The notes: a model not told the origin generated them from the letters alone. A stretch of DNA of 62,789 nt, filler included, from Sluysia triapertura (GCA_046118255.1; 5 parts of 5 records of this genome joined end to end with filler, not necessarily neighbours in it), one strand, 5' to 3'. Shown: positions 3,901-62,789, counted from the first letter of the whole stretch. A program made the numbers and translations.

Positions 3901-4483
3901 AATTGAAGTAATTAATATTTAATTAACTCATAAAAAGTGGGGAATTAAACACCGAAATTTTAGAGTATGAAATAAGTTAATGATTAATTTTAATTTGGAA
4001 TGTCAAATAATTTAAAAATTTTAAAACTTATGTTAAGTTTTATTTTACTTTAATATAGCCATCAATTTCAGTGTAGAAATATTTAGTAATTCGATTTTTG
4101 ACAATTATAATTTACACAATAAATGTATAGAATATTATTGAGTTTGAAAGAATAATTTAAAAATATAGTATAGTACGAATATTAGTAAATAAAAATACTT
4201 TAAATAAGGCTTAATGGAAAATGTATTGCTTCATAAGTATGACAACATTCAAGTGTGTTGCTTTCAAAACCAAATCTAAATCAAAAAAGGTTATATTTAA
4301 AATACAAGATAAGGCTTCACATCAAATATAAAATTACGTCATGTATTATATAAGATTATGAAGTGTTTCAAAGTGTTAAATTATTTCTAAAAAGTTAATA
4401 AGATTTGTTATAACCAATCAAAATATAATAAAATATTACAAAATTGGCTTTGTATTTTATCTTTGAAAAAGTTCATTTTTAAT

Positions 4484-6925
4484 ATGGCTGTCGAAAAGAA
4501 AAGGTTTTACGAAAATCTTATTTCTCAATTAGAATCAGTACCTGAAATCCATTGGTTTGTGCAACCAGTATTGGATAATGATGCGCCAAGATACAGTACT
4601 GAAATCTTTGACTCAATAGCAATAAGTGATATAAAAAGGAAATTAAAACAAGATTATTATGAAGATCCATGGCTTCTTATTGAAGACTTTTACCAAATGT
4701 TTCAAAATTGTTATTTTTATAACAGTGAACATGATCAAGTGTATCTGGATTGTTTAAAGGTAATCCAAATTAGTTTTATTTTAATATATATTAGATTGAA
4801 GATTTGTTTCTACAAATTGTAGACCCGTGGATGAAAGAACAAGGTTACTGCTGTGGTAAAGTTAAAAGTAAGAAAGTGTCAGAGCTCATTTGTGCAACAT
4901 CAAAGAAATGTAAAATTTTGTCAAATCACATTTATTATAAATGTGTTTATAAGTAATATAATGTAATTTAATTATATTATGCATTGATAGATATAAAGAA
5001 CAACATGTATGTTCAAAATGTTACGAGAAATCCAGTGCAGAGGTAGAATTGCATAATATGTAATTTGTATAATTTATATATATAATGTATCTAGAAAAAT
5101 ACAGAAACGTTGTCTGCAAAAAATTAAAAAGAAGTTTATCAAAGAAATACAAATAAAATGTATACAATGTAATCGAAAATTTCATAGATCTTGTGTTGTT
5201 TATCCTGACACGGATGATTACATTTGTAATACTTGTTGCAGTATGTTTAAAACGACTAATAACAAATTAACAATTGAATCATTCCCAATGAGTATATTTT
5301 CATCATATGCACAAAAATCGATTCGAGAATTATTAACAGAAAAAGGTGTTGATGATTCTAATGTATTTATAAGAGATTTTCTTAGTCCAGAAAAAACTTT
5401 AGAAGTTAATGAGAAATTTCAAGCATTTTATAATGTTCATTATAATATTAATGTACCGTATCGTGTAAGAACTGTTACAGCGATACAAAAATCAAACAAC
5501 TGCGAAGTAATATTTTTCATGTTTCAATGTCACGAATTTTCAAATAACGATAGACGAAATTTAAATAACAACACCATTTACTTTTCATTTATGGATTCTA
5601 TTCAATATTTCTATCCAAATCATTTAAAAACGGAAGTTTATCGGGAAATTTTATTTGCATACATGAAATATGCACAACAACGGGGCTATGAAAAAATGTT
5701 TCTGTGGATGAGTCCACCAAAGCACACAGATACTTATCTTTTTCCAATGCGTCCCAAACATCAAAAACTTCCTAATGCTCAAAGACTGCGCAGTTGGTAT
5801 ATTACTACCTTTAGTGAAGCTAAAGAGAGAGATATCATTGATGATTTTTATTCAGTCGATGAATATTACTTAAATAATGAAACTAAATTAGTAAATTCAA
5901 TTGCAGATTTAAACTATTATCATGGTGATATTTTTGAACAGTATTTGGAGGATATGTATCGCGCTGCTATTAATACAGTTAATAGATCCGATTCAGTTAA
6001 TTTAACAGTTACAAGTCAAAAACGAACAAAGAAAAATCTTCATAAAACTTCAAATTTGGAGGATATTGAACCAGAAAAGTTTACACTTATCAGTGATGAA
6101 TTAAATAAAAAAATTTCAAATTTTATAATTAATAATAAAAATGAATATTTGATAATTAAATTTAAAATTCAAACGATGCTGAACAGTTATATTAAAAATA
6201 ATATGTTACAATCAGAAAAAATTATTTCCAAGACTTTATCTTGTCGAGATGACTTATTATCGTTTTATAGTCATAATTTATTGGATTTTAGCACTTTGGA
6301 GAATGCATGTTATGCTACATCATGTGTCTTGAATTTAGCATTGTTAGAAACACGTGATGAAAACGTTATTTGTTCGAATTGCAAAGAGCAGAAGAAAACG
6401 AACTGCAAGAACTGCTTCGAATGCATATGTACTTCTTATTGTTGTGGGGAAAGACCGCATCAAATTCTACCACATGAAGAATTGGAAACAAAGAAATATT
6501 TAAAACTATTCAAACATTGTTTTGAATGCAGAAAACAATGCTGTTTAATTTTAGGTTGTTTGGAACTTAAACGCAATATTTTTCACACTATTTATTGTCA
6601 TATAACAAATTGTGGAAATTGTTACATTGTCAAATATTTATTTAATTTATACTACAAATTAGGCAAATGCAATTTTACACAAAGTTGTAGATCTCCTAAT
6701 GAAACATGTCAAGTTCCACAAAACAATGTTTCGAGAAAACGCTTTGCGAGTCAAAATCTATCAGAACCTTTACAAAAACTAATTAAAGTCTTCTCTTTTA
6801 ATGAAAGTTTATCAAAAAACATACCAAAAGTTCCACAAAACACGACAAAAATTGTTCCAGATTATACGGAAGAAACTGACAAAGCTATAAATTCACTTTT
6901 ATTTGATGAATACATAAATTCATAA
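4484..6925 (+). CDS. CBP/p300-like: Miniature CBP/p300-like (KAT3) histone acetyltransferase, ~777 aa; exons 4484-4759, 4795-4952, 4991-5059, 5095-6925
   Basis: GT..AG introns of 35, 38 and 35 nt join one frame. Domains: bromodomain (IKRKLKQDYYEDPW..MFQNCYFYN), DPWMKEQGYCCG, RING-like segment, PHD (CIQCNRKFHRSCV..ICNTC), HAT (YFSFMDS; LWMSPP..DTYLF; QKLP..RLRSWY; YYHGD), then Cys-rich ZZ-like and TAZ2-like segments. Confidence 0.92.
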
Positions 6926-9866
6926 ACAACCGAATATTAATCAGTTTTGTTTTTAGATTTATTCAGAAATTGCAATTCTATAAACCAAATGTTCCAGAAC
7001 TGCAAACTAATTATACCTTTTCATTATATTTAGTCTCATTATTTATTATTCAAATAGACATTCAAGTAAATATTAATATGTTCGCTACTAGCGTTGCACA
7101 TGTGCGACATATCAGTTCTTAATTTTGAGCCCAGCGTCGCAAATGTGTGGTCTGTCTACATTATCAGTACTATTTATTAATCATAGTGCAACACCTTATC
7201 GAACTGATAGTGATATTTAAAAATGTTCAATATATCTTGCTTCATTGTGTTACTATTTTGTTAATTAATTAATATATGTATTTGTAACGTTAAATTAATA
7301 ATTCCAATATTATGTTTAATAATTCTTTTAAATTCGTTTTTAAAAATTACCAATTTATTGTACAGAATTTTCATTATGTACTTCAATTGCACACTAATGC
7401 TCGAATATGATTTTCTTTATTATACTTGCTAGATCTAACGAACATTCATAATTATCAGCATTTTAACTTAATAGATATTAATTATATGCTGTAAAATTGT
7501 TTTACTGGATTTTAACATTTAAATAATAAAATCAAAAATGTCTAATAAATGTTTTTATAATATGCTTAGCTGTTTGGTTAATTTAATGAATCTAATTTTT
7601 GTTTTTCATTCTGTTATAACTTAATTTATTTTCAGTTTTTGAGCTAGTAATTTATAATTAGTACAAAAGTTATAATTTATAAAGTAGATGTGCATTATGA
7701 AAAAGTGAACTTTTAATTTTACCTTTGTTGACTTTATAAATACACTAATTTATTAATTTTTAAGTGCATTTTCATGGAGCACAAATATACTTTTTAACAG
7801 TTATTCTGTGATTGGGTCAGAGGCCCAGCAAATGAAACGGGCAACCCAATAGTTTAGCAACCAAGTTAATAATAGTTCCAGATTAAATGGCATATAACAA
7901 TAAAATACTTTAGTGCATTGAGTTTTACAAAGACAAGAATAGACTGCATTTTGTTTAAAAAATCACAATAACACTACAAAAATAAAGAAGGAAATATACT
8001 GCAAATAACATTTTATCAGACAAATCAAGAAAAAATAATTAATTATGTTATAATGATTATTAATTTAAAATATATTTCCCAGAAATGATCAAAATAATAA
8101 CATGAAGATTTCCGGAAAATGTTGTTTAGAAGGGAAACCATTACCTTATTAGTGCAAAACACAAAAACATGATTAATGATGAACCATTATTTTCGTCTAC
8201 TTTACTCGGCTTATTTCTCTAAATTAACTTGTCGCATTAAAAAACAGTCACTAGCATGAAAAATGAATTTAACTTACTTTTTTTCACACTCAATTTTCTT
8301 ATGAATAATGTTTAAAGTTCTTAAGTGTTTCTAAACAGATCATTTTAGAAACGCTTAATATTGTCTAGATTCTTCACTTTCATGCCAATCAACTCACATT
8401 CAATTCTTTAACCTTTCATTATTATCAAACATTAAACATTTAATATTTTAGAATTTAGAGTTCATTAAAATTTGACTTTGCTTAATATTAAGGTTTTCCT
8501 TGCATGAACTCGGTCAAACCATAGATCCACGCACAATCACAACGTTAAATCAAGAAGCCTACTATGATAAATGGAGAATTATCTGACAATTTTTCCTGTG
8601 ATCTAAGACTTGTGGAGTATCTTATCAACAGGATTTTGTAAGGTAAAGACAAATGTTAAATTTATTAACAATATTAACTTGTGTGTGATTACGCAACTCA
8701 TTTTCAGTGTGTTATTGTGTTAATAAATAACGGCTATGTACTTTTGTGTTTTATTTATGACTGATGTTATATATTCTAATATAAGTTTAATTATAATATA
8801 ACGTAAATACTTAATTAATTTTATTTTACAAATGATTTTCAATCTCTATTAAAATATGATTTTAACTCTGATTAAAACGACATATCAAATCAATTAAGAA
8901 GCCATATTTTAGATAATTTTTTAATATTATATTACTCTTGACTTTAAATCTGTTTAAAATGAAGTGTGAAAATACGCGATTAATTTTACAAGCAAAAATA
9001 ACTAATAATGGAGTTAACTACTTGATACAATTTTAATGTAGCAAGAATGAAAGAAGAATAGTGATTTTATTTATTTAAAGATTTGGGTATTTAAATAATT
9101 GCTAAATTTATTTTTATAGGATTTTATCCTGTTAATTAAAATTACTGTGCAAATATTGCAAAATAATTTCGAGTCTATTTTCTATGCTTTTTAAACTTAA
9201 AAAGAATTAAACTAACTGTAAACATGGACAATATTTGAATTAGATGCAATGTTTTGGCCGTAATGAATTAAATTTCAAAAAAATAGTGGTGTGTTTGTGT
9301 GTATAATTAGATAATTTAGTCCTAGTAAAAGTGAAATGTTAATTGATTAAGTCCTCTTTCGAAAAATATTTGAACCGTTTATGCAGAAAATTGTCTCTAC
9401 AATAAAGTAGCTGAGATTATATATCAAATTCAGTGTTTATTGCTAACTGATTTTGTGATATTTTTTATTGTAAATTAAAAATTTTCAAATTTCTATTATG
9501 AAGCTTTTTTATTTCTTTTGATAAAAATTTTCATTGTTTTAGATTTAACTATTGTTAGTTTTTAAAATTGTTTTCATAATTTCAATGGGTTCGCCTATAG
9601 TAAAAAAGACTTGTGATTTTAATTAACATTTTTTAATGATTATTATGTAATTACATTTTAGGTACAATTAATTGTGAAGTTAAATATGATGTATTTGTTT
9701 GATGCGTATGTTGCGTGTATGTGCTTCTTATATCTGAAGATTCCGTGATAAAACTATAGTTTTGTTATACTTGTTTTAAATTCGTTTGAATGTATGTTTA
9801 CTATACGTCGAATGTTTAACAGTAGCTCTATCGTGTATTTCATAGAAAGGTAGAAGCGGTTTAAGT

Positions 9867-10325
9867 TTGAAAGATTTTGATGACTTAATGTCAAAAGTTG
9901 AAGGGGTAATATTATATAAATTACGTTCATTTTTTGTAAGAATAACCAAATCATTTTGTTTAAAATCATACCGTGTATGTTTTACTCAAGATAAATTATG
10001 TGTCAATCATAACTGCGACAATTGTATGAATAATTTTAGTCATAAAGAAGATCGTTCGTCAGTCTTATTGAGAATTTTGGATAAAAATCCAAAGTCAATC
10101 GTACCTAAAGTAGTTTGTGGACACCGACATAAGTCACATCATGAGGAATGTAACTGTAAACGATCAGCACGTCTGAAAAATTATAATGAGAGTCAAATGA
10201 TGACATCCAAAATAATCACCGCAAGATACCAAATGACCGAAATGGGAGAATGCTCCGGATATGGGAAAAATTGTAGAATTGTCATAGAGTTTTCGAATTC
10301 CAAGATATTTATAGTCATGTATTAA
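9867..10325 (+). pseudogene. LIN54-like: Degenerate LIN54/tesmin (CRC/CXC domain) copy
   Basis: TKSFCLKSYRVCF..CVNHNCDNCMNN..ILDKNPKSIVPKV..CNCKRSARLKNYNE follows the CXC-linker(RNPxAFxPK)-CXC layout, but several Cys are lost and the second CXC breaks off. Confidence 0.7.
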
Positions 10326-10986: not shown

Positions 10987-11141
10987 TGTTAGACGTCGTA
11001 AAATGGACTGACCGGGGATCGAACCCCGGACCTATAGCTGCACAGTTCGATGCTCTACCACTGAGCTATTAGACCCATCTAACGATTTTATTTTATTAGT
11101 CAGTTTTACCAAATGGCACTTTAGGCCTTTTTATCCCAACA
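10987..11141 (-). mobile_element. Short tRNA-containing element, copy 1 (TGTT..AACA termini, TSD TTAC)
   Basis: TTAC flanks both ends (10983-86, 11142-45). Internal A box TAGCTCAGTGGTAGAGC and B box GGTTCGATCC on the minus strand. Confidence 0.85.
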
Positions 11142-11633: not shown

Positions 11634-12148
11634 TTAATCACGTACATCTAGATTTATAACCCCGCAAAATTATTATTATTATTATTATAAATATATTCTT
11701 GACACATTAAAGACAATATACGAAGAAAAGCACATATAAAAAAGTGAAATCACATCATCCAACCTCATTGTGTTAAAATACATAGACAACGTTCATTGTA
11801 TGCTTTTGAATTTATAATGCTTACACTAGGATGTATTTTAAAAAAATATATACATTATATATGTATAATATATATAAGCATAATAAAAATAATGAAATAA
11901 TAAACAAAATTCAAACATTAAAATATTTATTTTTAGAGTTTTCATTAAAATATTTATTTTTAGAGTTTTGTTTAAATATTTTATATAAAAATGTATAAAT
12001 TTATAATTAGAAATGTGTTAAATTATATTAAATTAGTTTATAAAATATAAAATGTATAAGAATTATTAAAATATTACTAAAAAATAGTGTTTCACAAATT
12101 TAGTAAAAGTATATTTTTAATCATTTAAGTAACATTACTATTTAAAAA

Positions 12149-12523
12149 ATGATTGAATTTAGTGAAGAAAATTTGTCATATTTAATTGAAAATGAACAAA
12201 ATAAATTTAAAGTAAAGTGCAGTCGTTGTAATTCCATAATAATCAAACCAGTAACTGCATTTTATGTTGATGAAATTTTGGAATTGCCAACAATGCATAG
12301 TAAGAATGAAATTGGAAATGCAGATACGTTTCCAGTTGAAACGTTAAAAGGTTGTTGGTTATTAAAGGATATGTATGACTTTGAGAACATTGGATTTTCT
12401 CATGAAAGAGATAACAAGAAATATTTATTATGTGCTGATTGTGAAATTGGACCAATTGGATATCAAGATTTAAGCCGCCCGAATCGTTTTCTTGTCTCAT
12501 TATCCAGAGTTGAACATATATAG
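12149..12523 (+). CDS. RABIF: Guanine nucleotide exchange factor MSS4 (RABIF), intronless, 124 aa
   Basis: CSRC..W..DMYDFENIGFS..KYLLCADCEIGPIGY is the Mss4 signature. AATAAA follows the stop codon. Confidence 0.95.
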   Translation: MIEFSEENLSYLIENEQNKFKVKCSRCNSIIIKPVTAFYVDEILELPTMHSKNEIGNADTFPVETLKGCWLLKDMYDFENIGFSHERDNKKYLLCADCEIGPIGYQDLSRPNRFLVSLSRVEHI

Positions 12524-37639: not shown

Positions 37640-37793
37640 TGCTAGACTTCAAAAATGGACTGACCGGTGATCGAACCCGGGACCTTCGCTGCGCAGTTCG
37701 GAAGCTCTATCACTGAGCTATCAGCCCCGTCTAACAATTTTATTTTATTTAGTCAATTTTACCAAATGGCACTTTAGGATTTTTACCCCAACA
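37640..37793 (-). mobile_element. Short tRNA-containing element, copy 3 (TSD AAAA)
   Basis: aaaa|TGCTAGAC...CCCCAACA|aaaa. Best-preserved acceptor stem (GGGCTGA/TCAGTCC) followed by A and TTTTT. Confidence 0.85.
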
Positions 37794-40007: not shown

Positions 40008-40406
40008 TCAGCTCTCTCCTCCGCCTATGTCGCTTTTGAGATTTTGTGAGGCCGGAGGTGTGTGAAATAGGTGGCTTAATAAGTTGCTAGTTAGAAGTGG
40101 AAATTGAAGGAAGACAAGTTTTATCCGAAGGTTGAGAAACAGTAATAGAAAATGAAGTAAGTGACATAGATTATGAAGATGAAATATGAACTGTATCAAA
40201 AATATATTGGTGTTTATATCGATTTTTGTAGAAAATTTTGCAAGACGTGATCGTTGATCTGCGTAAGGGTCAGGATGGATAGTCAGTGGCGCATTGTCAT
40301 ACAGAAAGAAGATACACCTAAAATGAAAGCGATGGGTGCAAAGCATCGCGCGAGCTTGATATTTGCGTAGAGGCCTAAGGCAGATTGAGCAGCGATAAAA
40401 GCTCAT
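40008..40406 (-). pseudogene. RING-H2-like finger ORF (truncated or frameshifted)
   Basis: CSICLRPLRKYQARAMLCTHRFHFRCI = C-x2-C...C-x-H-x2-H-x2-C; the final Cys pair is missing in this frame. Confidence 0.6.
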
Positions 40407-40855
40407 AAAAGGAATTAAGTTAAATTAAATGAAATTAATTAAATTTAATGGAAAATTAATAAAATCCTAAAACTATTAATGTATTTGTTGGTGCTACGAA
40501 AAGATATTGTACATTTTCGAGTAATTAAGACCAGGTGAATGGTGAATATACTTTTTCTAAACTTCTATAACATGTTTATGCTGTCGTGTTAAAAAGAGAT
40601 GGAATCAAATAGCTCCAACCGTAAGATTGGTTTCAAGCAGAGCGAAAAGTATAAAGATATTTTATCAATATGGTCAAAATAAAGATTTTTACCATCAAAT
40701 GTGTTTGAATAAGGTTTAAAATTGAAAATTTCACCTCATAATGAAAACAATACAGTAATTTTCAGTTGAAATATAATGTGAGCAAAATAAAAACAAAATA
40801 AACGTGCAATAGAATTTATAATTAATCGCATTATACCAATATAATAGGAAAATAT

Positions 40856-45807: not shown

Positions 45808-46342
45808 ATATAAAAATACAATTATCAAACGGGTTGTTTAAAATACTACGTGAAATTGGTTCTAAAATATGTTACAAATTATATTTTACAAATTTAAGTT
45901 TACATAAAATGACTTAAAACGCCAAATTATTGTTGTATTTCCTTGAATAAAATAATTCCTGATTGATCACGTCATTCTTAATTCTCATTAAAATTTTTTG
46001 GACAATAAACGAATATTAAATTTTATCTATTATATAAATATATTCCTTTATTATTATTGATTTTTCTATATTTTCTGATTATTAATTACCAAATTATTAT
46101 TACATTATTAATATAGATAAATTTTCTATTTGTTGATTATTTAACAATAGTTGTTTGTCGAGCATTAGTTGTTCATATAATTGTTATTTGTGTTACCACT
46201 AAAATCTGATTAAGCTTGATTAAAACTACTTAATATTTCATTTACACCTTTTTTTATTATATTGTATTTTTTACTAGAACACCTATTATTATTTTATTCA
46301 AAGAATAAAACTTCGTTTTAAATTAAATATTTAAATATTTAG

Positions 46343-47137
46343 GTAACAACAATTTACGTATATTATCTACTAAATTCTCCAACTGTGTTTTAAAACTTCC
46401 TAACACAGCACCTAAGTACAAGAATTGCGATCGAGTAAAATTGGCTTCATTCTTATATCGAGATAATTGTGCTAATTTTATTGGATGGTTACGAGAATTT
46501 GGATTTTCGAATAGTATCTTATTTGAAACAGAAGATTTAATATCTCGTAAAAATGTGAGAAATGTAGTTTTATCTTTGCTAGAGTTAGCTAGAGTTGGTG
46601 GGTTTTTTGGATTGTCTGTTCCAGTGTTAGTGCAATTTGAAAGAGAAATAGATGCAGAGATAGCTGCTGAAAATGAATTTGTGGTTGAAGAAGAAGAAGA
46701 AAAGTTTTTTAAAACAAATCTATGTACAGATGAAATAAATAATATACAAAACGATTATCAAAATGATACTAATTATTGTATAAATAGCAACAATGACATT
46801 AGTAACATGGACAGTTTGAGTCAAAATATAATTTGTAATAATATCACTGGACCAGAGAATGATTATTGTAATAATAATAATAATAATAATAATTTCTATA
46901 ATAATAGTAATAATGAATCTATGATTGATCATAAATATGATGAAGTACATGATCCAGAAAAAAAATCGACATGTGATAATTAGTAAACCTTATGTAGCAC
47001 CTTGTGATGTTCAGTCACTCGATGATCTGGTTCGAAAAATCATTCAACAATGCGAATGTCCTAATTTATTTCCTATGACCAGATTGTCAGAAGGAAAATA
47101 TTTATTTGGTGACAAGAACACTTTGATTTTTGTACGG
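46343..47137 (+). CDS. GAS2-like: GAS2-family (CH + GAR domain) internal exon with an apparent +1 frameshift
   Basis: CH part: FLYRDNCANFIGW..LFETEDL..VVLSLLELAR..LVQFEREI. GAR part: LDDLV..CECP..FPM..LSEGKY..IFVR|gttagt. Acceptor AG at 46341-42. Flanking exons not located. Confidence 0.85.
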
Positions 47138-50549: not shown

Positions 50550-51900
50550 TTAATTTAAAAGTAATTTAAATTTATATTATCAGTTATTTTATTTTAACCT
50601 AACTCGATTTCTTGCGAAATTTAGTGTATCACTAATTGGCTTCGCCTATATATGCGATATGTACTCGTTCGAGATACTTATTTCTAGGAATGTCTGTAAC
50701 GAATATACGTTAGGGTTTCTTCAACTATTGATGATCATACGAAAGTTTTGTTTATTGTAATTAACAATATAACCTCGTTTATAACTCACTTATCTCTTCC
50801 TTAAAGAAGAATGTAAACTTAAGGAATCAAAAGTTTGTACACAAATTGGTAATTTCGAGCATTCGATTATAATATTCGTAATAATAATTTGGTCTACTGG
50901 AATCGGTAAATAATTTTTCACAACAAAAGCAGTAACGCGTTGTAAAATTGTCTTATTAAATTTCTTTTTTGAGTGCTTATAAGGACGGTCAGTCTTTTTG
51001 TTTTATATATTTATCTGTTAATTAATTATCATTAATTTGTTAGTAGGTATTATTATTCTTGTAATTGGTTTGGAAGAGGCTTGTTGTTTTCCATAGCTTA
51101 TTCATTTATGCATTCATTTTCATGCCTTATAGATACATTTAGAAGTATATAAAACTTCGCCCATGAGTCTACCGAAAGGAATTTCTAATGGAAGAACCTC
51201 TTTTTCATGTTCCATCTAGTAATACATTGCCACATGTCCATATATTGTAAATCATCTTTTTGTTATTTTTAATTTTTAATCCTTAGTTAATATACTCTGT
51301 TTCAAATACGTCCCGGTAATTGTTTGGTACTATTTTAAATGTTTTCAATATATTTCAAATGTCAATTATTGATGAATGAATATGGTGTCTGCAATATCAT
51401 ATAACCACCGATCTTTTAACTGAGAATTCTCTTATTGGAGTCATAATATTTTAGTATATTTTATTCGTACTCTATTCGGTCTTGATTCTCTATAATGTTT
51501 GGTATCTAATAATGAAAATTTCCTTCCTATTTGAAGTTGGTTGCATTCAAAGGCCTATTAATCCCAAACATGTCTACTAAAATTATTATAAATAGTATAC
51601 TATTTATAGAGGCTCCCAAATGTGGAACATTTCTTTTTAATAATTCCTTAATGTTGAGTAAATTTGTAATTATATAGAACGACTCGTTTAAATTGTTTAT
51701 TTCTTTTCTTTAATAATATTTCTCCATGTACTAAGTTTCTTTTCTACGAAATTGATAACTTTATCCATTTTCTTTTATTGTAGTTTCATTGCATTGGAAG
51801 ATATATAATCTACCTTATTTTATTGTGTATAAGCAGAACTTCATATATAGCCCACATTATAAAAAGCAACTATTTTTAATATAACCCGCACACATATATA
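50550..51900 (-). mobile_element. Highly decayed Ty3/Gypsy pol remnant (RNase H / integrase zinc region)
   Basis: Fragmentary motifs: GRKFSLLDTKH (cf. GRxFxxxTDH), DRWLYDI, and GHVAM..ITRW..KRFF (HHCC region). Many stops. Confidence 0.45.
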
Positions 51901-52739
51901 ATAAATAGATAANNNNNNNNNNNNNNNNNNNNNNNNNNNNNNNNNNNNNNNNNNNNTTAATTAATTAANNNNNNNNNNNNNNNNNNNNNNNNNNNNNNNN
52001 NNNNNNNNNNNNCTTATTAAAGGACATTATAAATCGCCGAAGAGTGTTCAAATAGTGTTTAGGATCCTCAGATTGTAAATATAAATATATATATATTGAC
52101 GATACAGATACCGATATTCCGTAATTCAATTCTTCTTTGTAAAGTATAATTATTGTAATTAAATTCCTTCTCTAGTACAGATACTCGCGATAAGTTTTGA
52201 TTCCTGCTACTGTTATTTCTCGATTATGGCAATTTGTGGAGAAGATGCGCTTTATTTATACGCTATTCATTTTTCTATTTTTGAATTTTGATAAATATTT
52301 AATAATTTTGATGAATCAACATCCGCATAAATACCCGTAATTATCATAAATTGTTAGATTTCCGTTTTTAAAATAAAGTATTAATTAAAATTTTTTAATA
52401 TAAACAATTTAAAACAAATTAAATGAGATAATTAATTGAATTAAAATTAATTTTTTTCTATTATATAAGATTTATAAAATTAATTATATGAGATTTATTT
52501 TTCTAGAATTTTACATAGAATTTTACAGTATTTATACAGAATTTTACAGTATTCACAATACTAAGTTCAGTACAAATTAATAACTTATTGTTAATAAGTT
52601 ATTAACAATAAAGTGACCAAAAATTAAAGCGGAAAATTTTCATTAAGCTTTTTATTAAATCAATTTAAATATTATACAAATATGGCTCTTTTAGTCAGTT
52701 AAACCTTGACGTGGTACCAGAATACCGATTTGTTAAGAA

Positions 52740-53432
52740 GGTAGCACCATTTATGGTGAAGATTATACAGCTGTAAAAATGTATGATAAATTTGATGATA
52801 ATTGCTCACAAAATAATAATAAAGAAACACATTTCTCTAGAGAACATTTAGACTTCTGTCGGCAACAATTAGTACCAATTCATTCAATAATATCATGTAA
52901 ATCACCAAGTGAGAAATGCTTTAAAACATAATTTTAAAGTAATGAAAAGTATCAGTATACCAAATGTCGTGTTTCGAATCTTCCATTATCCATCAAAGAT
53001 ATATCAAATGATCAGAACAATCTTTTCAAACGTGTTTAATCCTAATCGCGATACATCGTATGATTTTAGTATTCAAACGCGATTGATTCTTTGACATCTT
53101 GTCCAATTGATATGGAAAGCAATTACAAAATAAGTCAATTTGATAATAAATTTAAGATTCCAAAATACGCATTTTGCCTACTTCAAGTCACAACATCAGG
53201 ACGATGTACGAAATATGGCGATCTATGTCCATATGCCCATGATTTGAATGTGTTGGTATCAATTTCTGAAAATTCAATTCGGCCATCATATTTCAGTACC
53301 AAAAATTTTAATAAAGTAATTTGTGATTCTTTTGAACATTATATTACTCTTAAATTTAATGTGCGTAATTATAATTTCATAATTTTACTTTTAGGATATG
53401 ATCAAATGTTTTTTAGTATGCTCGAACAATAA
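52740..53432 (+). CDS. CCCH zinc-finger gene or pseudogene fragment (exon structure uncertain)
   Basis: KYAFCLLQVTTSGRCTKYGDLCPYAH resembles a TIS11/ZFP36-type finger. Candidate 31-38 nt introns could link upstream frames. Confidence 0.5.
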
Positions 53433-54540
53433 AAGAAAAAATTTTTATATAACTTATAGTCGTATTATAAATAAATGTTTAGTAATCAATTTGATGTTTT
53501 GTATTAACGAATTTGGTGAAGCTTTATATAAATTCAATAACATTCAAAATTTCAATAAAATCTGTTGATTTTTTCATGTATAACAAAATCTTAATTCAAA
53601 ATAAACATTTTAAAAATATAATACACCAAAAAATATATCGTTAATTGGACTTCTATTTATCTTTTAACTAAATTTGTTATATTAAACGAATTTATTGTAT
53701 ACTGTTAAAGGAAACTAAAATCACGGTTAGATAAATATAAAATTCTTATTCGTAAATTGAAAATTATTAATTATCTTAAGAAAGTCGAGTAATATACTCA
53801 ATAATTCCTGTAATATTCAACATTCCACAGCAAGCGATTAAATAATATAGTCATAAATTTGATAAATTCAAGTGTATAATAGAGAAGTTTAATTTTAAAT
53901 CCAATTTGAGGTCTATTTAGATCAAATATAAACTACTGAAAACAAGTAGAAGTGCTATAATTAGCGAAATTGAAATCAATCAACAATTATCTTTCAACCT
54001 CCAGTACTTGCATTTCTTTAAACGCTGACATATATACATTGGCTCTTCAGTGTTTAAGCCCGGTGTCGTAGAGGACTCACGAATGTATTATTGTATAACT
54101 GGTTATGAATAAGTATAACATTTCCGAGATAGCGATATATGATCATTGGAAACTCAATTACTATTGAAGATTGTCGGAAAACAAATGGTTTAGTTCTTAT
54201 CTTGTAATACCGTATAAAGATAGTCCTGGAGTCACTCTAAGAATCATATTCTAATTCCATAGTTATTGTCACACTAATTAGTTGATATTCAGCAAGATCA
54301 ATACAAGATATAAACAAATTGAAATCCTGTTTACTTGCCCTTGTTTCAATTTCACAACAATCCAATATATAACATTTTATTTGAACGGAAAATAATTTAA
54401 TTTTGTCTGTTAATATTTTAGCATAAACATCTTTCTGGTTAGATACTAGATTATTCTAGGTGAGTTGTTTTCTTATAAATAAGTTGTGCTTGGTATACAA
54501 GATAGATAGATACATATCAAGATTGTAGATTTAACTTGAG

Positions 54541-55796
54541 TCATTTGCCAGTCTCCGTATATGAGCGGTATTTGATTATTTGTAGCGTATTCATAAATTG
54601 GAGATGGAAGTATTGGCATGCCTGGAGGAGGAGCGTAATTGTTTCTATGTGGAACTTTAAACGCATCGTCGTCGTCATTATTATTGTTATGTGGTAAACA
54701 TGGATATCGACATTTATTCGAGCAAACATAATAATAGTCAATACCACTATAGCTAAAGCGATTACGAACAGTATTGCCGCCACAATTAATATCACTAACG
54801 CTGGATCATTACGTAATATTTCTAATATTGTTAGATGTTTTCTTGTTCCTTTAAATGAAAAATGCAAGTATTTTGATGAGTGACGGATTTTCACTATAAT
54901 ATGTCCATCTTCGACAGGTAAAATATCTGAGCAAACCATGACTGGATATCTCAATTCACTATTAATATAATTTTCATATATGATCCATGAACTAAAATTA
55001 AGTCTGGCAGGTTTTAAACATGCAAATTTGGCATGAATATTTTGATTCAATATCTTAACTTTTACTTCATTGTTTTTATTATAGAATTCAAAATATTCCG
55101 TGTTAAAAGATTGTTCGTGACATTGAACTACTGTAATTATCATAATTAAAATCAAAGGTATAAGATTTTTATTATTCGCAGAAACCCGTATTTTCCTACC
55201 TATTTGAGATAAATAGGGTATGGTCCAAAATATGTATAGTACCGCAAAAATTAGTAATATTATAAAGAATTTATAAGAGTGTCCTGTCGTACCTTCTGTA
55301 GTTGAATTTTTAAGTTACTTATTTGTTTTTTAGTTGTACTATGATTGGACAAGGTTATTTGTGTTTTCGTTGTTTCTCCATCTCTCAAGTGATCTATTAG
55401 CTTGATAAATTTCCAGATGTCTCGTGTATTTCTTGAGGTGTCTAGAGAAAGGTTATCAGCATCGGTCTATAACCGTAATGTAGACAATGTGGGATGCCAT
55501 TTAAATGATGTGGTTTTTCCACTAATAATGGCTTTAAATAAATACAATAAATTTCAAATTTATGTCGTAGAATCATTTTTTTAGAAATGAATTCGAATTT
55601 CCAATATTGAATGTAAATGTCGGTAATCATTATTTTCTGTTCCCTGCCATGATTTGTAGCTATATTCATATTCCGTTGCCATGACATTAGTTATAAGTGA
55701 TAGAAGAATCACAATTAAGATAGAAAGCCAACAAGTTATTTTCCCAAAACGATTTTTATTAAGATAATTTCCTTTTCTTATATTAGTCATTATCAT
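54541..55796 (-). pseudogene. Membrane-protein ORF fragments downstream of integrase
   Basis: Signal-like WLSILIVILLSLITNVMA and ILIMIITVVQC; TM ALVILIVAAILFVIALAIVVLTIIMFA; frameshifted. Confidence 0.55.
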
Positions 55797-55814
55797 TACT
55801 GCATCCTGAATGTC

Positions 55815-56325
55815 TCAGCTGATTCCTGAATCTGAATTCTCTTCTGATGTAATTGTTGATGGCGATCCCCATGACACATCTGATAGATGGAGTTTAGATT
55901 CGACGATGTCAGGTAATGGTAAGTCTGGAACTTGTAATGGTGGATTTGACATAGGCATTTGGTATAAAGTTAATTCGTCACCAACTTGTGGAACTAATAT
56001 TTGCGGTATAATTATATTTGAACCTGGAGGTACTTTTATAAATCCATATTTTCTGTGAATAACCATATCTTCCAATCTGTTGATAACATCCATTCCTAAT
56101 ATTAATTCATATGGGCTACTATCCCAAACATTTACTAGAATTTGTACATAGTGTTCTAATACTTCTATATAACATGATAGAGTTCCATTGATATACATGG
56201 GTGTTTGATTTACATTATATGTTACTAGACTTGGTCTGTTTAAGAATATTGATTCCCAAGTAGTTAGAAAATTTTTATGAACCACACTAATAGTAGCTGC
56301 AACCCATCGTCAGTTAAACCGCACA
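55815..56325 (-). pseudogene. Second retropepsin-like domain after integrase
   Basis: GLTDDG(frameshift)AATISVVHKNF...ING...ELILGMDVINRL matches the LxDxGAxxSxx and ILGxD motifs. Confidence 0.55.
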
Positions 56326-56485
56326 TTTTGCATTATATGAGCTAGGTCATTTCCACATGTTTTTTCCTTAGTGCATGAATTGACGGTGGTTTATCTCGGT
56401 CTTTATGTATTGGCTGAATTTTCAATTTTGATTTTTGTACCTTTCTATTTCTTAAGTTATATTCCTCTTTCGGTGCCATTTTACA

Positions 56486-57450
56486 TCAGTTGACATGTAC
56501 TACAAACGTTTCAGAATTAATTTTATTAGGATCCTTAACAAAAACATTTGTATCTGTAACTTTTGTTATTAGATAAGGGCCTTTAAAAGATTTATGTAAT
56601 TTTGGTGAGTGGCCAGGTTTAGTTATCGGATAGTCTATAATAACTTGGTCACCTATTTTAAATGTATGTTCTTTCGCTGTTTTATCGTATGCATCTTTAT
56701 ATATTCCTTGAGAATACTTAATTTGAAGACCTGCCCGTTCTCTCAATGTAGTTACATATTCTGGAATTTCTAAGTACTGTGAAGTAGGTGGTACCCATTC
56801 TAAATCCACTGGCATGTTGGAGTGTCTACCGTACATTAAATAGAATGGAGTGAAATTAGTTGGTGGATGTACAGAACTTCTACATGCAAAAAGACATGGT
56901 GCTATATATAGGTCCCAGTCGGATTGTCTATCGTTTACATAAGATTGGATCATATTAATAAGTGTTCTGTTAAAACGTTCTACTAATCCGTCAGTTTGTG
57001 GATGGTAAGGTGATGTGTAAATTCGAAGAATATTAAAGATTTTAGCTACTGATTTGATCACATCGCTGGTAAAGTTAGTTCCTTGATCTGTTAGTAATTT
57101 ACGAGGAGTTCCATATCTATATATTATCTTTACCACCAGTATCTGCGCTACTGTTTCAGCCTTTTGATTAGGCATCGGGTATGCCTCTGGCCATTTTGTC
57201 AAATAATCGGCGAATACGATTATATACTTATTACCGTTGGTAGTTTCTCGAAGAGGACCCATAATGTCCATAGCGGTAAATTCCATTGGTGATAATGACA
57301 CTGGCATAGGCTTTAGTGGTACTTTAGTTTTTTTTGTCCTGTATTCTTTCGTCGACAACATATTGAACAATCTTTACACCATTTCCTTATATCCGATTCC
57401 ATATTTTCCCCGCAGTATTTACTTGTAATTCTTGATAATATCTTTCTTGT
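56486..57450 (-). pseudogene. Gypsy integrase
   Basis: WCKDCSIC zinc remnant; DDE triad in AMDIMGP, LLTDQG and GLVERFNRTL; C-terminal FKGPY. Confidence 0.95.
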
Positions 57451-57500
57451 TGATAGACATTCGTTAAATGCCTTTGTTTGTTCTTCGGTTCATTTAAATA

Positions 57501-58405
57501 CTACATCCTTCTTAGTTTTCTAAGAGGGCTTGCTATTTTTGCGAAATTTTTAACAAACCTCCTGTAATAATTAGCCAGACCTAGAAAACTCTGAACCTTT
57601 TTAACATTATCTGGTTGAGGAAACTTAATTACTTTCTCAATATTTCTTGGGTTTGGTTTAATACCATCATTAGATACTATGTGTCCTAAGAATTTGACTT
57701 TTTCTTCTGCCCATACACATTTTGTAGGTTTAATCTTAAGTCTTGCAACTTCTATTCTTTTCAAGATATTATCTAAATCTTCCAAGTGAGTTTTAAAATC
57801 CTTTGAAAATATTATAATGTCATCTATGTATACCATGACATTGTTACATCTTGATAGTACAAAATTCATACAACGTAGGAAAGTTGCTGATGCGTCGGCT
57901 AGACCAAAAGACATCTTTTCGCATTCGTATAACTCATTTCCACATGTAAACGCTGCTTTATGTTTATATTTTTCTGCTATTTCAATCTGCCAATACCCGC
58001 TTTGTAAGTCTAACGTAGTAAAATACGTAGCGTTCCCTAGTTTGTCTAGCATTTCATCTATTTGTGGTAGTGGGAATACATCTTTTCGTGTTATCTTATT
58101 CAATTCCCTAAAATCTATAAAGAATCGCATCGTGCCATCTTTCTTTTTAACTAATAATACTGGTGATGAAACAGGAGAGAAACTCGGTCGCATTACTCCA
58201 GCTTTCTTCATAGTGTCGATTTGATCTTGCATTTCTTTTTGATTGAAAATAGGAATTCTATAAGGTTTTCTTCGAATTACCTTATCTTCTGTTAATGGTA
58301 TCTCATGTTTTATAATTACCGAATCTCCAATATCGTATTTATTTTTTGAAATTGCTCTTGGATATCGATATATAACTTCATATAGTTGTTCTTTTTGTCT
58401 TTTAG
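57501..58405 (-). pseudogene. Gypsy reverse transcriptase (RNase H deleted)
   Basis: SPVLLVKKKDG..IDFRELN; LDLQSGYWQI; YIDDIIIFS; FLGH; FLGLANYYRRFV. Confidence 0.95.
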
Positions 58406-59150
58406 TTAGATTTTGTTGTTAATTTGAATTTCTCCATAATCTTCTTCTTGTATGTCACGTTGTAATTTTATTATGTTACTTTTCGTATCTGTTACTATAT
58501 TAATATGCGTCGGCATTTTATAATTAACAATCCTCCTTAATTTAGTTCCGGTGAATAACCATTTATTGTTGTTGGTATAATTTATAAGTCGAACAGGTAT
58601 TTTTCCTTCGCAATTATTACAAAGTGAATCTGCAATACCTATGCCCAATTTCTCTTGATTAGTTTCTGAAGCTATAAACATAATTCTGCCAGTTAATGAA
58701 CTTTTGGTTTTTGCAGGCATTATGTATTCGGTTCTACTTAATAACCATAGTAGTTCGTCAATGTAAACACCATCGTCGTCGTCGTCGATAGTTCTCTTTG
58801 AATAACTTTCCATTAGTTTGACACTATCAAAATCTAGTATTTCTCCTTTTTGTTGTGGCAGTATATCCATCCCAAGATCATATCTTCTGGACATTTTTTC
58901 ATCACTCTCAATTTTACTTCTACTTTATTCTGTCCTATTTCGCATACGGCTTTCATTACTCCAACAATGTGTATGACATCTCCAGTGACTCCTGATAAGT
59001 GTGAAAAATGATTTGAAAGGTTCCCATGTTCTTCTTCTGTTAATTGATTTTCATTAATTAATGATGCCACTGCTCCTGTATCCACAAGTGCCAATATCGT
59101 TCTTCCATTGATTTTGACGTTGGCTATTGATCTTTTAGAAATATTATAGT
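58406..59150 (-). pseudogene. Aspartic protease and PR-RT linker
   Basis: INGRTILALVDTGAVASLI...DMILG; linker GKIPVRLINY. Confidence 0.9.
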
Positions 59151-59359
59151 TATTATTTGCACATATTATCATATAAACCACATTCGGTATTGGTGCTGTT
59201 GGGGGATTTGGATAAATTTTATCCTTCTGCGATCTTTTAAGATTTTCCTTTAATTCTTCAATCTCTTCATTTTCATCATTTTGAATTGTTTGTAATGTCA
59301 CATTTTCATTTTCAGTTCTTGTTCTTTCTTTTCTTAACTCATTTATTTGTGAACCAGCA

Positions 59360-60370
59360 TGATGGTGTAACAAGTACATCGCCAAAATGGAAAGCAGCCT
59401 ATTATCAATTTCAATGTAAAACCTGAAATCTTATAAATTCCGACAACAGAGAAAACTTGAGATATTATTAATGCTACCACCTTAATTATTATATAAATAC
59501 CAATTAACCCTGAAAAGGCTTGGCCTATAATTAAAAAATTACCCAAAATGTGTTTTAGTGTATTTTGTGCGGCTCTTTTAAAATGATCCGGTCCTAATAG
59601 CAATTCGAAATTAATTCTTCCATCTTTTTCTACTGTTGCCTTATCTAATTTTGATTTTTTTATAGGGAAAAGTATCTCCCGCCACGCCGCTTGTATATCT
59701 TCGTTTCTATACATACCTGAATGGGGTGTATTTTTTGTTGCTAAAAATTTCAAATTTCCTTTTAACTACGTTAATCGAATAATTTCCGGTACTTTGACTT
59801 GAATTCTGTGTGGTAATGAAATCCATAAGTTTTCATCTATTCTATATACCGGAGCCATTACATTTGAACAGTGCATTAACTTTGGTTTAATCTTATCACT
59901 AGGAAATTTTACTTTTGTTACTGGTAATATTCCTTACAAAATTTTCTTGAGAGACGCATTCGATTGATCCTTGTTCACAAGTTCCATCTGTTAGTATGTT
60001 TCCGGCAGATCTAATATTATAGATAATTTTGTCCTTAGAATAATCCTATATAACCGGTTTCGAAGGCATCTCTACAATTATTCGGTAATTGTAATAGGTG
60101 TGACAATTCTATTATAGATGAATGACTATGGTGACCACAATACCATATCGCTACCGATATTTTTACCATACATACTCTAACCAGTGCTGTTATTAAATTT
60201 CCTTCTTAGTATACACTAAAGAATCTTATTTGGTCTTGATTCCGGGCAGTCTTCTGTATCCAGTAATGAGAACTTCCTACCAACTGTGGCTGATTATAGT
60301 CAAAAGTTTTTATTGCAAAGGTTTATTTATACCAAACATGGCCAACAATATTATCACAAAGAGCATGTTG
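59360..60370 (-). pseudogene. env-like: Chuvirus-like (class III-type) envelope glycoprotein, internally deleted
   Basis: Signal MLFVIILLAMFG, then IKTFD..FSLLDTEDCPE; VCMVKISVAIWYCGHHSHSSI; AGNILTDGTCEQG; CSNVMAPVYRIDENLW; SGMYRNEDIQAAWREILFP; long C-terminal hydrophobic region GQAFSGLIGIYIIIKVV..GFTLKLIIG. Confidence 0.8.
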
Positions 60371-61949
60371 TTTGTTGAATTTCCTAATCGTGGTATAGCT
60401 GTATTTAACATATTATTGTTTCCGAATAGATTTGCAAATAAATTTGATGTTTCTTCGGTTTTCTGATTCTTTTTTCTTTTAATTATATTTATCCAACTTC
60501 CTTGTTCTTCAATCATAACTTTGTTTTCTTATTAATAAAATCTATAACCTTATTTATTTTATTCTTATTAATTATCCTTTCCTTATTGCATTGAAACACA
60601 GTGTAAGCTAAAATTATTTTAAATCTTTCTCTATTTATCCCCTTACCAAGTTGTTTATTAATAATTAATTTATACTGTCCATTCTCTATAAAATCACAAC
60701 ATCTTTGTCCTTATATTTCTCCTCTATTTGTTTTATAAGTTTTATTATTATGCTATTATAGTCTTTTAGTTTGGGTAATAATTTCTTATATTTACTAGAG
60801 TTTGTAAACGTATTAGATAAAAACGCATAAACTATGTTTCTTGTATTCAATTCTATTGATTCTTCTTCACTTTCGTCTATTATTTTTGTCAAATCTATAA
60901 TGTTTCTTCTAATGGGATTAGGTGCTATTAGTACATCATCTTCATTTTTTCTTGGGCGACTAGGCCGTCTTTTAATCGTATTAGTTTCTTTATCACTTGT
61001 TTCAGTATGTGGATTTCTATTCACATCAACTATATAATCAGGCTCTTCTACCGGGTCATTACTTTTCGTTATTTCATTATCGTTCTCATCCATTAATATG
61101 AATGATTGAGGGTTCATATTTACTTCATCATCCGATATATTTTCGAATAAGGTTTCACATTCAGTAGTTTTGTTAGTAGTAACAGCGTTTATTATTTTCT
61201 CGTGGTTTCCTAATGGATGACCATAATCGTTAAGAAAGTCTGTAGGTATTATCGTAGAATAAGTCTACATTCAGAATTGATGGATCATTCGATTTTATTA
61301 TATTAATAATGACTTGAACCAAAAAATTTACTGGTTATTCCATGAAAATATTGACAAGTCCATTTAATGACATATTAATTTTCATTAATATTCGTGGATC
61401 TGTTTTGCTTTCCATTAATGCAATCTTTTAATAATTTTCTTGCTTTATATTGCTGGCTTCACTTAATATGACCAAACTTGGTTTGATACTCTGTGCATTA
61501 AACATATTTAAATCTAAATTTAAAATCGTATCCAGATTTTTATCGATATCATCGTTCTTTTCTACTTCAGCTAATGATGGTTCGGGTTTGTCTGTTTTTC
61601 CAGGTTATCCAAGTCAACTGTTTGCTCTTTCTCTTCATTGCCTAATATAATTTTTGAATCTAAATCTTCAATTATATCATCAACTAAGTCATCTTCATTA
61701 ATTGACTCATCTGTTTGGGTGGTTAACTCTTCTTCGTTTATTATATTATTATCTTGTTCCCATCTTCTAATAATTGCTTCGATTTTTTTACCTCTATCTC
61801 TTGAGTTGTTTTTTCTGTTTTTCTTTCATTACTTTCAACGTTTTCTTTTTATCTTTATTCACCTTTTTCCGAAAAACGTAGTTGATGAATGTTTCATCCT
61901 CGTCTTCTTGTTCTATCTTTGTCTTTCTCCTTTCTTCTCACATATCCAT

Positions 61950-62328
61950 ACTATCTAGCTTTGCTCTGCAAAAATCACTTCATTTGTTAGTCTTCTTGGA
62001 TATTTTTCGTAACCAAAATCTTCGTAATATTCATCGTAATTACAATTAATCTGTCCCTTGTCTTCAAACTTTACTCTTCTTGGAGAGCTTTGTCTGTTTT
62101 TATTAAGATTTTGTTTGAAAGTTTCGAATTTCAATTTGTCGCATAGTGTCCTGGTTTATTATTATTTTTATCAGTTATTATTATTTCTCCTTCGGTATTA
62201 ATTCTTATTTTGTAATTATTATAATTTGGTCTAGATGGACTTTTATTTCTATCGTAATTATTTCTTTGTCTATCATTACTTGACCATCTGGGAAGCGGTC
62301 TTCGCTCATTGTAGTGGCCAACACTCAT
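61950..62328 (-). pseudogene. gag C-terminal (nucleocapsid) remnant
   Basis: R/N/S-rich stretch followed by GEIII..NNKPGHYATN, a decayed CCHC knuckle. Confidence 0.55.
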
Positions 62329-62334
62329 AATTTA

Positions 62335-62789
62335 AAATTAATCAAAATTCATATTTAACATTCATAAATTAAATTTCACCAAAATTCAATTTTCAAAACA
62401 ATCACACTTTTTACTATCGAACTACACCAACACAAAAATCATAAAAACAACACTCGATATTTATAACACCTCATCAACATACACATATCAACAATTCAAC
62501 TAACATTTTTAACCATCCATAGTACAACAAACTCCGACATTTAATCTCGAATAATTCACAATATCCACTCATAAGATATTTTAACAAACAAATTACAATC
62601 ACAATATAAAATACACAAATCATAAACATAGTAGCATTATTCAACAACGCTAGCAACTACCTTAGAAACATAAATCATTTTTATCAAAATCCTTAATCAA
62701 CTACACCAACCGAAATCCACTTTATATACACATATTCATCATTAACAATTACTCGTAATAACATCATAAATACTTTAAGATTCATTTTG
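62335..62789 (+). mobile_element. A/C-rich LINE-like remnant truncating the Gypsy element
   Basis: Strong A/C skew like the element at the window start; fragmentary TPT..TLDI motif resembling an APE endonuclease C-terminus. Confidence 0.35.

Follow-up and report, generated by a model that had tools for sequence, protein, structure and literature searches.

The stretch analysed here, which we call the window, comprises 62,789 nucleotides of Sluysia triapertura (GCA_046118255.1), joined with filler from five parts of the genome. It is AT-rich and animal-like in composition (~24% GC) and is interrupted by scaffold gaps. On its minus strand, from ~62330 to ~54000, lies a broken Ty3/Gypsy retroelement of 30-33% GC, of which ~8.3 kb are visible. 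Read along that strand, its parts are a faint trace of gag, then a BCL2-like stretch, a class III envelope gene (env), a protease (PR), a reverse transcriptase (RT) and an integrase (IN); within the window Pfam names four of these parts (PF24664 env, aspartic protease, RT and IN). We conclude that the locus is very probably a decayed genomic copy of a Burro-like GAG-ENV-POL Ty3/Gypsy element.

An earlier note, made from the sequence alone, had described a Ty3/Gypsy element with a chuvirus-like envelope between gag and PR, apparently in one polyprotein, and we find the order of parts and the motifs that it listed on the minus strand. Its three glycoprotein motifs occur as YCGHHSH (60035-60205), SLLDTEDC (60216-60293) and SGMYRNEDIQAAWREILFP (59343-59765). 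The span that it gave, 58834..62330, does contain parts of the element but leaves out RT (57504-58418, Pfam E 2e-32) and the IN core (56489-57373, E 1e-12), and the element runs on to ~54000. By Pfam and tblastn, the pol order is PR-RT-IN, and integrase after RT is the Ty3/Gypsy (Metaviridae) arrangement. The best RT matches are Gypsy-type pol proteins, and the IN open reading frame (ORF) contains FKGPY, a GPY/F-type C-terminus. Pfam and the nearest relatives thus agree on the Gypsy type, with no PR, RT and IN of Bel/Pao type. No long terminal repeats were seen and no long direct repeat is listed in the window; the 5' end of the element lies at or beyond the window edge.

Env and RT share a single open reading frame in six relatives

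A search with the RT returned five relatives at 53-55% identity, and across relatives the RT is 50-55% identical to that of the window. P0121, a cluster mate of one of these, is a single ORF of 3735 amino acids that holds a Gag with two CCHC knuckles, a spacer, a PF24664 env (E 1e-91), PR, RT, RNase H and IN. By Pfam, env and RT share one stop-free ORF in six relatives (P0121, P0123, P0128, P0132, P0237 and P0239), two of which, P0121 and P0128 (2627 amino acids), also have Gag knuckles ahead of env; in all, CCHC knuckles precede env in five relatives. A HMMER library search with env gave 114 matches, one of which, P0163, is an unrelated SdrD repeat protein. The best env and the best RT matches converge on the same elements. 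P0239 (4844 amino acids) also has ankyrin repeats and C2H2 matches; P0128 (HBK71150.1) is filed under a Flavobacteriaceae metagenome-assembled genome, most likely owing to animal DNA in the bin.

The earlier note had proposed an RT phylogeny. In a quick IQ-TREE of 127 rows, the window RT falls in a 14-row group with all six RTs that have env in their ORF (SH-aLRT 86). As the window RT groups with the RTs of env-bearing relatives, env was inherited with the element and not nested into it.

The envelope is chuvirus-like

PF24664 (Monjiviricetes_fusion) matches the window at 59346-59765 (E 6e-16, profile positions 466-590) and, below the curated cut-off, at 60038-60205 (E 4e-5). On a profile of eight relatives, positions 30-165 and 433-618 of 637 map to the window with nothing collinear between them, revealing an internal deletion. 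The C-terminal part, which reaches E 1e-58 on this profile, contains a stop at 59768-59766 and a frame break near 59385. It has a hydrophobic segment at its end (59540-59484), and one strong segment is likewise present in 5/5 polyproteins checked; a single end segment would be expected for a single-pass class III fusogen. The furin motif R-x-K/R-R is absent from eight of nine envs.

We modelled the env of a relative, P0129, with AlphaFold from a 46-row alignment (predicted local distance difference test, pLDDT, 81). The model best matches chuvirus glycoproteins, with Tacheng tick virus 4 at a Foldseek E of 1e-44 and a template modelling (TM) score of 0.55. Among solved structures it matches herpesvirus gB (E 3e-14, TM 0.33-0.35), with a large root-mean-square deviation. 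The fold comparison that the earlier note had called for, run on this relative, therefore returned both chuvirus G and herpes gB, and together with PF24664 on two pieces of the window it bears out the note's chuvirus-like class III envelope: on this model, env is of the gB-type class III fold and chuvirus-like. A sequence search of the PDB with the env alignment gave no matches, and a word-based search with the C-terminal piece found nothing where the HMMER library search succeeded. Related env loci amounted to one decayed 1.8 kb piece in metagenomes and none in viral contigs.

Env probably ran into the protease

The earlier note had drawn attention to a run from AMYLLHHH, at the end of the glycoprotein, into ALVDTGA. 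Both do lie in one stop-free ORF (58834-59430, minus strand, 198 amino acids), of which residues 99-188 are the aspartic protease (Pfam E 1e-7). The env transmembrane region of the relatives is followed by a conserved tail. Scored against the relatives' profile, the env tail of the window reaches 61.9 bits when read in the protease frame, against 42.8 bits in the env frame and 45.0 bits in the third, and one of 1000 shuffles scored as high as the protease frame. Because the tail scores best in the protease frame, we place the break near 59385 within env, which would have read on into PR. In 12 of the 15 best env matches the ORF goes on to include a protease-like domain, and the other three end 3-32 residues past the tail; of the 28 examined, 13 run into such a domain 42-303 amino acids past the tail. 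The more distant env matches have a protease-like domain in 1 of 86. Judging from the relatives, one ORF from env into PR is likely in this family, as part of the reading that we hold very probable. The intact relatives and the frame of the env tail together support the single Gag-X-Env-Pol polyprotein that the earlier note had suggested, with env between gag and PR.

The same gene order could instead go with an env that is an ORF of its own, or with a pol reached by frameshifting, so that the run from env tail to PR would be an accident of decay. The env frame of the window does stop at 59343, with PR in another frame, and P0129 and P0137 end just past the env transmembrane region. The errantivirus paper describes three ORFs arranged GAG-ENV-POL, and its main text uses neither 'polyprotein' nor 'fused' (PMC13524379). 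However, the conserved tail lies in the PR frame, the break falls inside env and not at the env/pol boundary, the closest relatives are continuous, and the tail of P0129 is scrambled in a way that suggests a break. We consider this alternative improbable for the element in the window; most of the short env matches look like fragments, and a separate env ORF may exist in some lineages.

A one-off insertion of env is very unlikely

Env might instead be a one-off nested insertion in an ordinary Gypsy element (a chuvirus-derived endogenous viral element or a piece of a Bel/Pao element), or a mis-join. Mosquito Bel/Pao elements do carry chuvirus-like glycoproteins (PMC13524379), the window is broken by gaps and the element copy is rearranged. 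Yet the best env and RT matches meet in the same elements, env is fused to PR in 13 proteins, and env recurs ahead of PR in the relatives, where the earlier note had allowed for a lone insertion. Within the window, a second env remnant (51030-51822, minus strand) aligns with 59966-60621 over 685 nt at 61% DNA identity. The alignment takes in sequence upstream of env, so that the remnant keeps the same upstream context; its internal deletion differs from that of the main copy.

Contigs of run X1 cover env in the way that they cover pol. Of 21,252 aligned to the window, 16,635 are under 95% alike, and one divergent contig (59324-59647) crosses the junction of env tail and linker. Summed depth, which is no copy number and comes from a run that may be the window's own sample, is 33,000-58,000 in env bins, 50,000-190,000 in pol bins and 280-560 in the flank at 52020-53814. 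A one-off insertion is very unlikely because of the env-RT ORFs of the relatives, the RT tree, the X1 coverage and the second remnant. We regard the nested-insertion alternative as largely refuted and exceedingly improbable.

Decay, gag and the stretch ahead of env

The inherited GAG-ENV-POL element is dead in this copy: it has lost ~270 middle residues of env and the whole of RNase H, and it contains numerous stops and frame breaks. The remaining env pieces occupy three frames and are interrupted by stops; the frame also changes among PR, the PR-RT linker, RT and IN. In a tblastn comparison with P0121, the alignment jumps from residue 2707 to 2950 at ~57440, skipping the RNase H that is present in all RT-bearing relatives. 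The conserved PR-RT linker domain is present, with no relevant Pfam match; its Burro counterpart is labelled dUTPase-like. The present copy is incapable of the Gag-Env-Pol activities proposed below.

A trace of gag at 62313-62101 (minus strand) is the second-best match in the window to a profile of six relatives' gag (E 0.36). The knuckle remnant that the earlier note had reported thus stands where it is expected but is weakly supported; the gag region has no Pfam match, and no capsid region was found in the window. The capsid region of gag would be expected at 62340-62789. This segment is strongly strand-skewed (3% G and 45% A on the plus strand), has high contig depth and is unrelated to the element. 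It has no Rfam match and no Pfam match under translation table 9, and mitochondrial DNA, which we considered for it, found no support under that table.

Directly ahead of env lies a BCL2-like remnant. In a position-specific test with X at the frame break it reaches 13.4 bits against a profile built from four relatives, with 0 of 1000 shuffles as high; a blind scan of the whole window does not bring it out at significance, and its support is weak. Just ahead of env in relatives, Bcl-2 (PF00452) is weakly matched in P0129 (E 1e-3) and P0125 (E 0.2). The same test on single frames of the second env remnant was not significant (at best 35 of 500 shuffles as high). A profile search did not find the ubiquitin-like-looking stretch of the relatives in the window spacer, and Pfam and profiles found no Ubi/SUMO-like, BIR, RING, MATH or ankyrin domain in its pieces. 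These Burro accessory domains may have been lost from the window element, or may never have been present.

Domains beyond the integrase

A second, degenerate protease-like domain follows IN in the window (E 8e-10); P0123 and P0239 also have protease-like domains after IN. Relatives carry one to seven protease-like domains each. In P0239, P0126, P0123 and P0125 they are repeated three to seven times, before RT and after IN, and most have D-T-G/A. At the C-terminus, behind IN, seven relatives (P0008, P0009, P0121, P0123, P0128, P0237 and P0239) have a signal peptide, then one or two modules of FN3 fold, then a transmembrane helix, and P0009 has such a unit ahead of PR as well. The tandem module of P0008, modelled at pLDDT 85, best matches FN3 domains at a modest Z of 8-9.2; the Atlas result, in which fn3 clusters scored 0.92, agrees.

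In the window, hydrophobic segments follow IN at 55748-55671, 55278-55207 and 54819-54703. Its three ectodomains are not significant on the relatives' FN3 module profile (326, 25 and 160 of 500 shuffles as high), and an Atlas search with the second gave unnamed clusters only, under 0.8.

Table 1. Parts of the element and of the related remnant, in positions of the window
Feature	Position	Strand	Basis
Degenerate gag end, R/N/S-rich, nucleocapsid-like, with knuckle remnant	62101..62331	-	Weak: relatives' gag profile E 0.36; position fits
Spacer X, acidic, low-complexity, broken	60686..62100	-	Reading frames; no Pfam family above cut-off
BCL2-like remnant directly ahead of env, over two frames	60448..60710	-	13.4 bits, profile of four relatives
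Predicted internal env signal peptide	60310..60375	-	Hydrophobic run at the same position as in relatives
Env N-terminal part (gB domains I-II region), three frames, stops	59947..60310	-	PF24664 E 4e-5; profile positions 30-165
Env C-terminal part, one strong hydrophobic segment	59343..59933	-	PF24664 E 6e-16; profile 433-618, E 1e-58
ORF without stops that holds the env tail, a linker and the aspartic protease (DTG)	58834..59430	-	Pfam; env-tail frame scores
PR end and PR-RT linker domain	58406..58924	-	tblastn to P0121 2244-2361, 32%
Reverse transcriptase, with YIDD, and connection; the RNase H expected next is deleted	57423..58418	-	PF00078 E 2e-32; 50-55% to relatives
Integrase: partial zinc finger, core, GPY-type C-terminus	56390..57456	-	PF00665 E 1e-12; 56% to P0121 2990-3314
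Second, degenerate protease-like domain after integrase	55815..56309	-	Relatives' PR profile E 8e-10 at 56297-56070
Broken signal-peptide/ectodomain/transmembrane units after integrase	54050..55814	-	Hydrophobic segments; numerous divergent contigs cover it, as they do the rest of the element
Second, more decayed env remnant, sister subfamily, beyond scaffold gap	51030..51822	-	Env profile E 1e-8

Other features of the window

Outside the element, a divergent CBP/p300-like gene lies in a long single exon at 4391-6925 (plus strand; bromodomain E 5e-12, KAT11 acetyltransferase E 3e-17), and an MSS4-like gene, whose matches carry PF04421, at 12146-12523 (plus strand). Further pieces are a CXC/TCR domain (9846-10325, plus strand), a CH domain (46327-46983, plus strand) and a RING finger (40008-40424, minus strand). 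Two tRNA-like Rfam matches not called by ARAGORN (11004-11075 and, on the minus strand, 37656-37727) have downstream sequence in common and are probably tRNA-derived short interspersed elements (SINEs).

Discussion

The earlier note assumed that env in this group lies only 3' of pol. That premise is outdated: Burro/GYPSM1 of planarians was described in 2019 with an in-frame env flanked by a BCL2-like domain and a protease (PMC6431247), and errantiviruses with gB-type env in the order GAG-ENV-POL were reported in 2026 from Platyhelminthes, Nematoda and Bryozoa (PMC13524379). With Burro/GYPSM1 the present family shares one ORF with Gag CCHC knuckles, a BCL2-like domain, env, PR, linker domain, RT, RNase H and IN, and the Burro env is said there to be related to mononegavirus fusion proteins (PMC6431247). 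The window itself is Burro-like in its env, apparently in frame with PR, and in the weak, position-specific BCL2-like match directly ahead of env; among its relatives, P0239 has ankyrin repeats as Burro does. In contrast to Burro, whose internal region reaches up to 25 kb (PMC6431247), the window element measures ~8.3 kb after deletions, and we found in it no ubiquitin-like, ankyrin, BIR, MATH or RING domain. Because these accessory domains were not found and the tree holds no authentic Burro RT, we do not class the element as Burro proper.

The errantiviruses of Platyhelminthes C1a (Smed_errantivirus_1-6) also combine a Gypsy pol with a gB-type env upstream of pol, in multiple copies (up to 215), and are intact, whereas the window copy is not (PMC13524379). 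By eye, the six Schmidtea env rows share the pattern YxVYQExD...CGxHSxSS with the window and its relatives (PMC13524379). In the sections consulted, the main text of that paper does not discuss a single polyprotein, a BCL2-like domain or extra modules (PMC13524379). Of the features of the HSV/gB-type GAG-ENV-POL group (HSV, herpes simplex virus), the window has the gB-type class III env and its place ahead of PR, with a weak gag. The mosquito Bel/Pao elements with chuvirus-like glycoproteins (Dezordi 2020; PMC13524379) share the PF24664 family but have a Bel/Pao backbone, unlike the Gypsy backbone and env before PR seen here. In its workings the window element resembles Burro, and it is in keeping with the gB-type GAG-ENV-POL group; its gene order is already published.

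Some nematode genomes are AT-rich and compact, as the window is, and the nematode elements of Sacco and colleagues reportedly have a 'continuous gag-env-pro-pol ORF'. In nematode endogenous retroviruses, too, env precedes pol and derives from a captured RNA-virus glycoprotein (cited in PMC13524379), and their gene order is that of the window element (PMC13524379). That the element belongs to this nematode GAG-ENV-POL clade (Sacco et al. 2022) and not to the flatworm Burro-like clade nevertheless seems quite improbable: by eye, the 19 Nematoda_C1 env rows compared lack the YxVYQExD...CGxHSxSS pattern of the window, its relatives and Schmidtea (PMC13524379), and it is in Burro that a BCL2-like domain precedes env (PMC6431247).

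The Burro-like assignment builds on the domain order, the env family and (on a relative) its fold, the single ORF of relatives, the joint inheritance of env and RT, and the decay of the copy, each of which the data show. Several points weigh against it, among them the limits on contig depth given above. Gag is barely detectable in the window copy, and no intact copy from its own genome was seen, so that one ORF in the exact family is deduced from relatives. A first, poorer placing of the break, two codons off, gave the env tail 51.0 bits, with 59 of 1000 shuffles as high. Of the 28 env matches examined, 10 end within 81 amino acids of the tail and five lack the tail. In the RT tree, which leaves out authentic Burro, Schmidtea and nematode RTs, the window forms a long branch that belongs to none of the starred groups, and its group also contains P0120, itself on a long branch.

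How might an intact element of this kind work? Translation in the cytosol would begin with Gag and the spacer. The predicted internal signal peptide would then thread the env ectodomain into the endoplasmic reticulum, where signal peptidase would likely free Gag-spacer, and the single transmembrane helix would bring the chain back to the cytosol, so that PR-RT-RNase H-IN would start out as the cytoplasmic tail of Env until the element's protease cut Pol from it. Env, and not a Gag-Pol frameshift product, would bring Pol to the budding site, and Gag, Env and Pol would be present at 1:1:1. By analogy with gB or chuvirus G, env would trimerise and fuse membranes, without furin cleavage, and the element could move from cell to cell. 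A further signal peptide after IN would yield small type I membrane proteins, of FN3 fold in the relatives, and the BCL2-like domain may modulate apoptosis of the host cell, as suggested for Burro.

The copy itself adds little, but its compact intact relatives (2600-4800 amino acids) make a question about Burro-like packaging testable, namely how Gag, Env and Pol come to be packaged if signal peptidase likely separates Gag from Pol and the three are made 1:1:1. Less described are the up to seven protease-like domains and the FN3-fold membrane proteins behind IN in the relatives. The Grohme paper (2018) reportedly mentions an FNIII-like domain in Burro-2, which would reduce the novelty of the FN3 modules. 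The terms 'FNIII' and 'fibronectin' do not occur in PMC6431247, the Burro section of that paper mentions neither repeated proteases nor post-integrase membrane proteins (PMC6431247), and in our literature searches no description of repeated proteases or post-integrase FN3 modules surfaced. If those modules serve entry, they would form an unusual accessory envelope system for a retroelement. It is conceivable, if doubtful, that one membrane-threaded polyprotein gives an envelope of two components, a gB-type fusogen whose cytoplasmic tail, replacing a Gag-Pol fusion, takes Pol into the particle, and FN3-fold type I proteins from behind IN for attachment or as receptor decoys, with serially duplicated proteases (up to seven) each dedicated to one junction. 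A retroelement would then divide binding from fusion much as herpesviruses do, and the range of the clade may extend beyond planarians.

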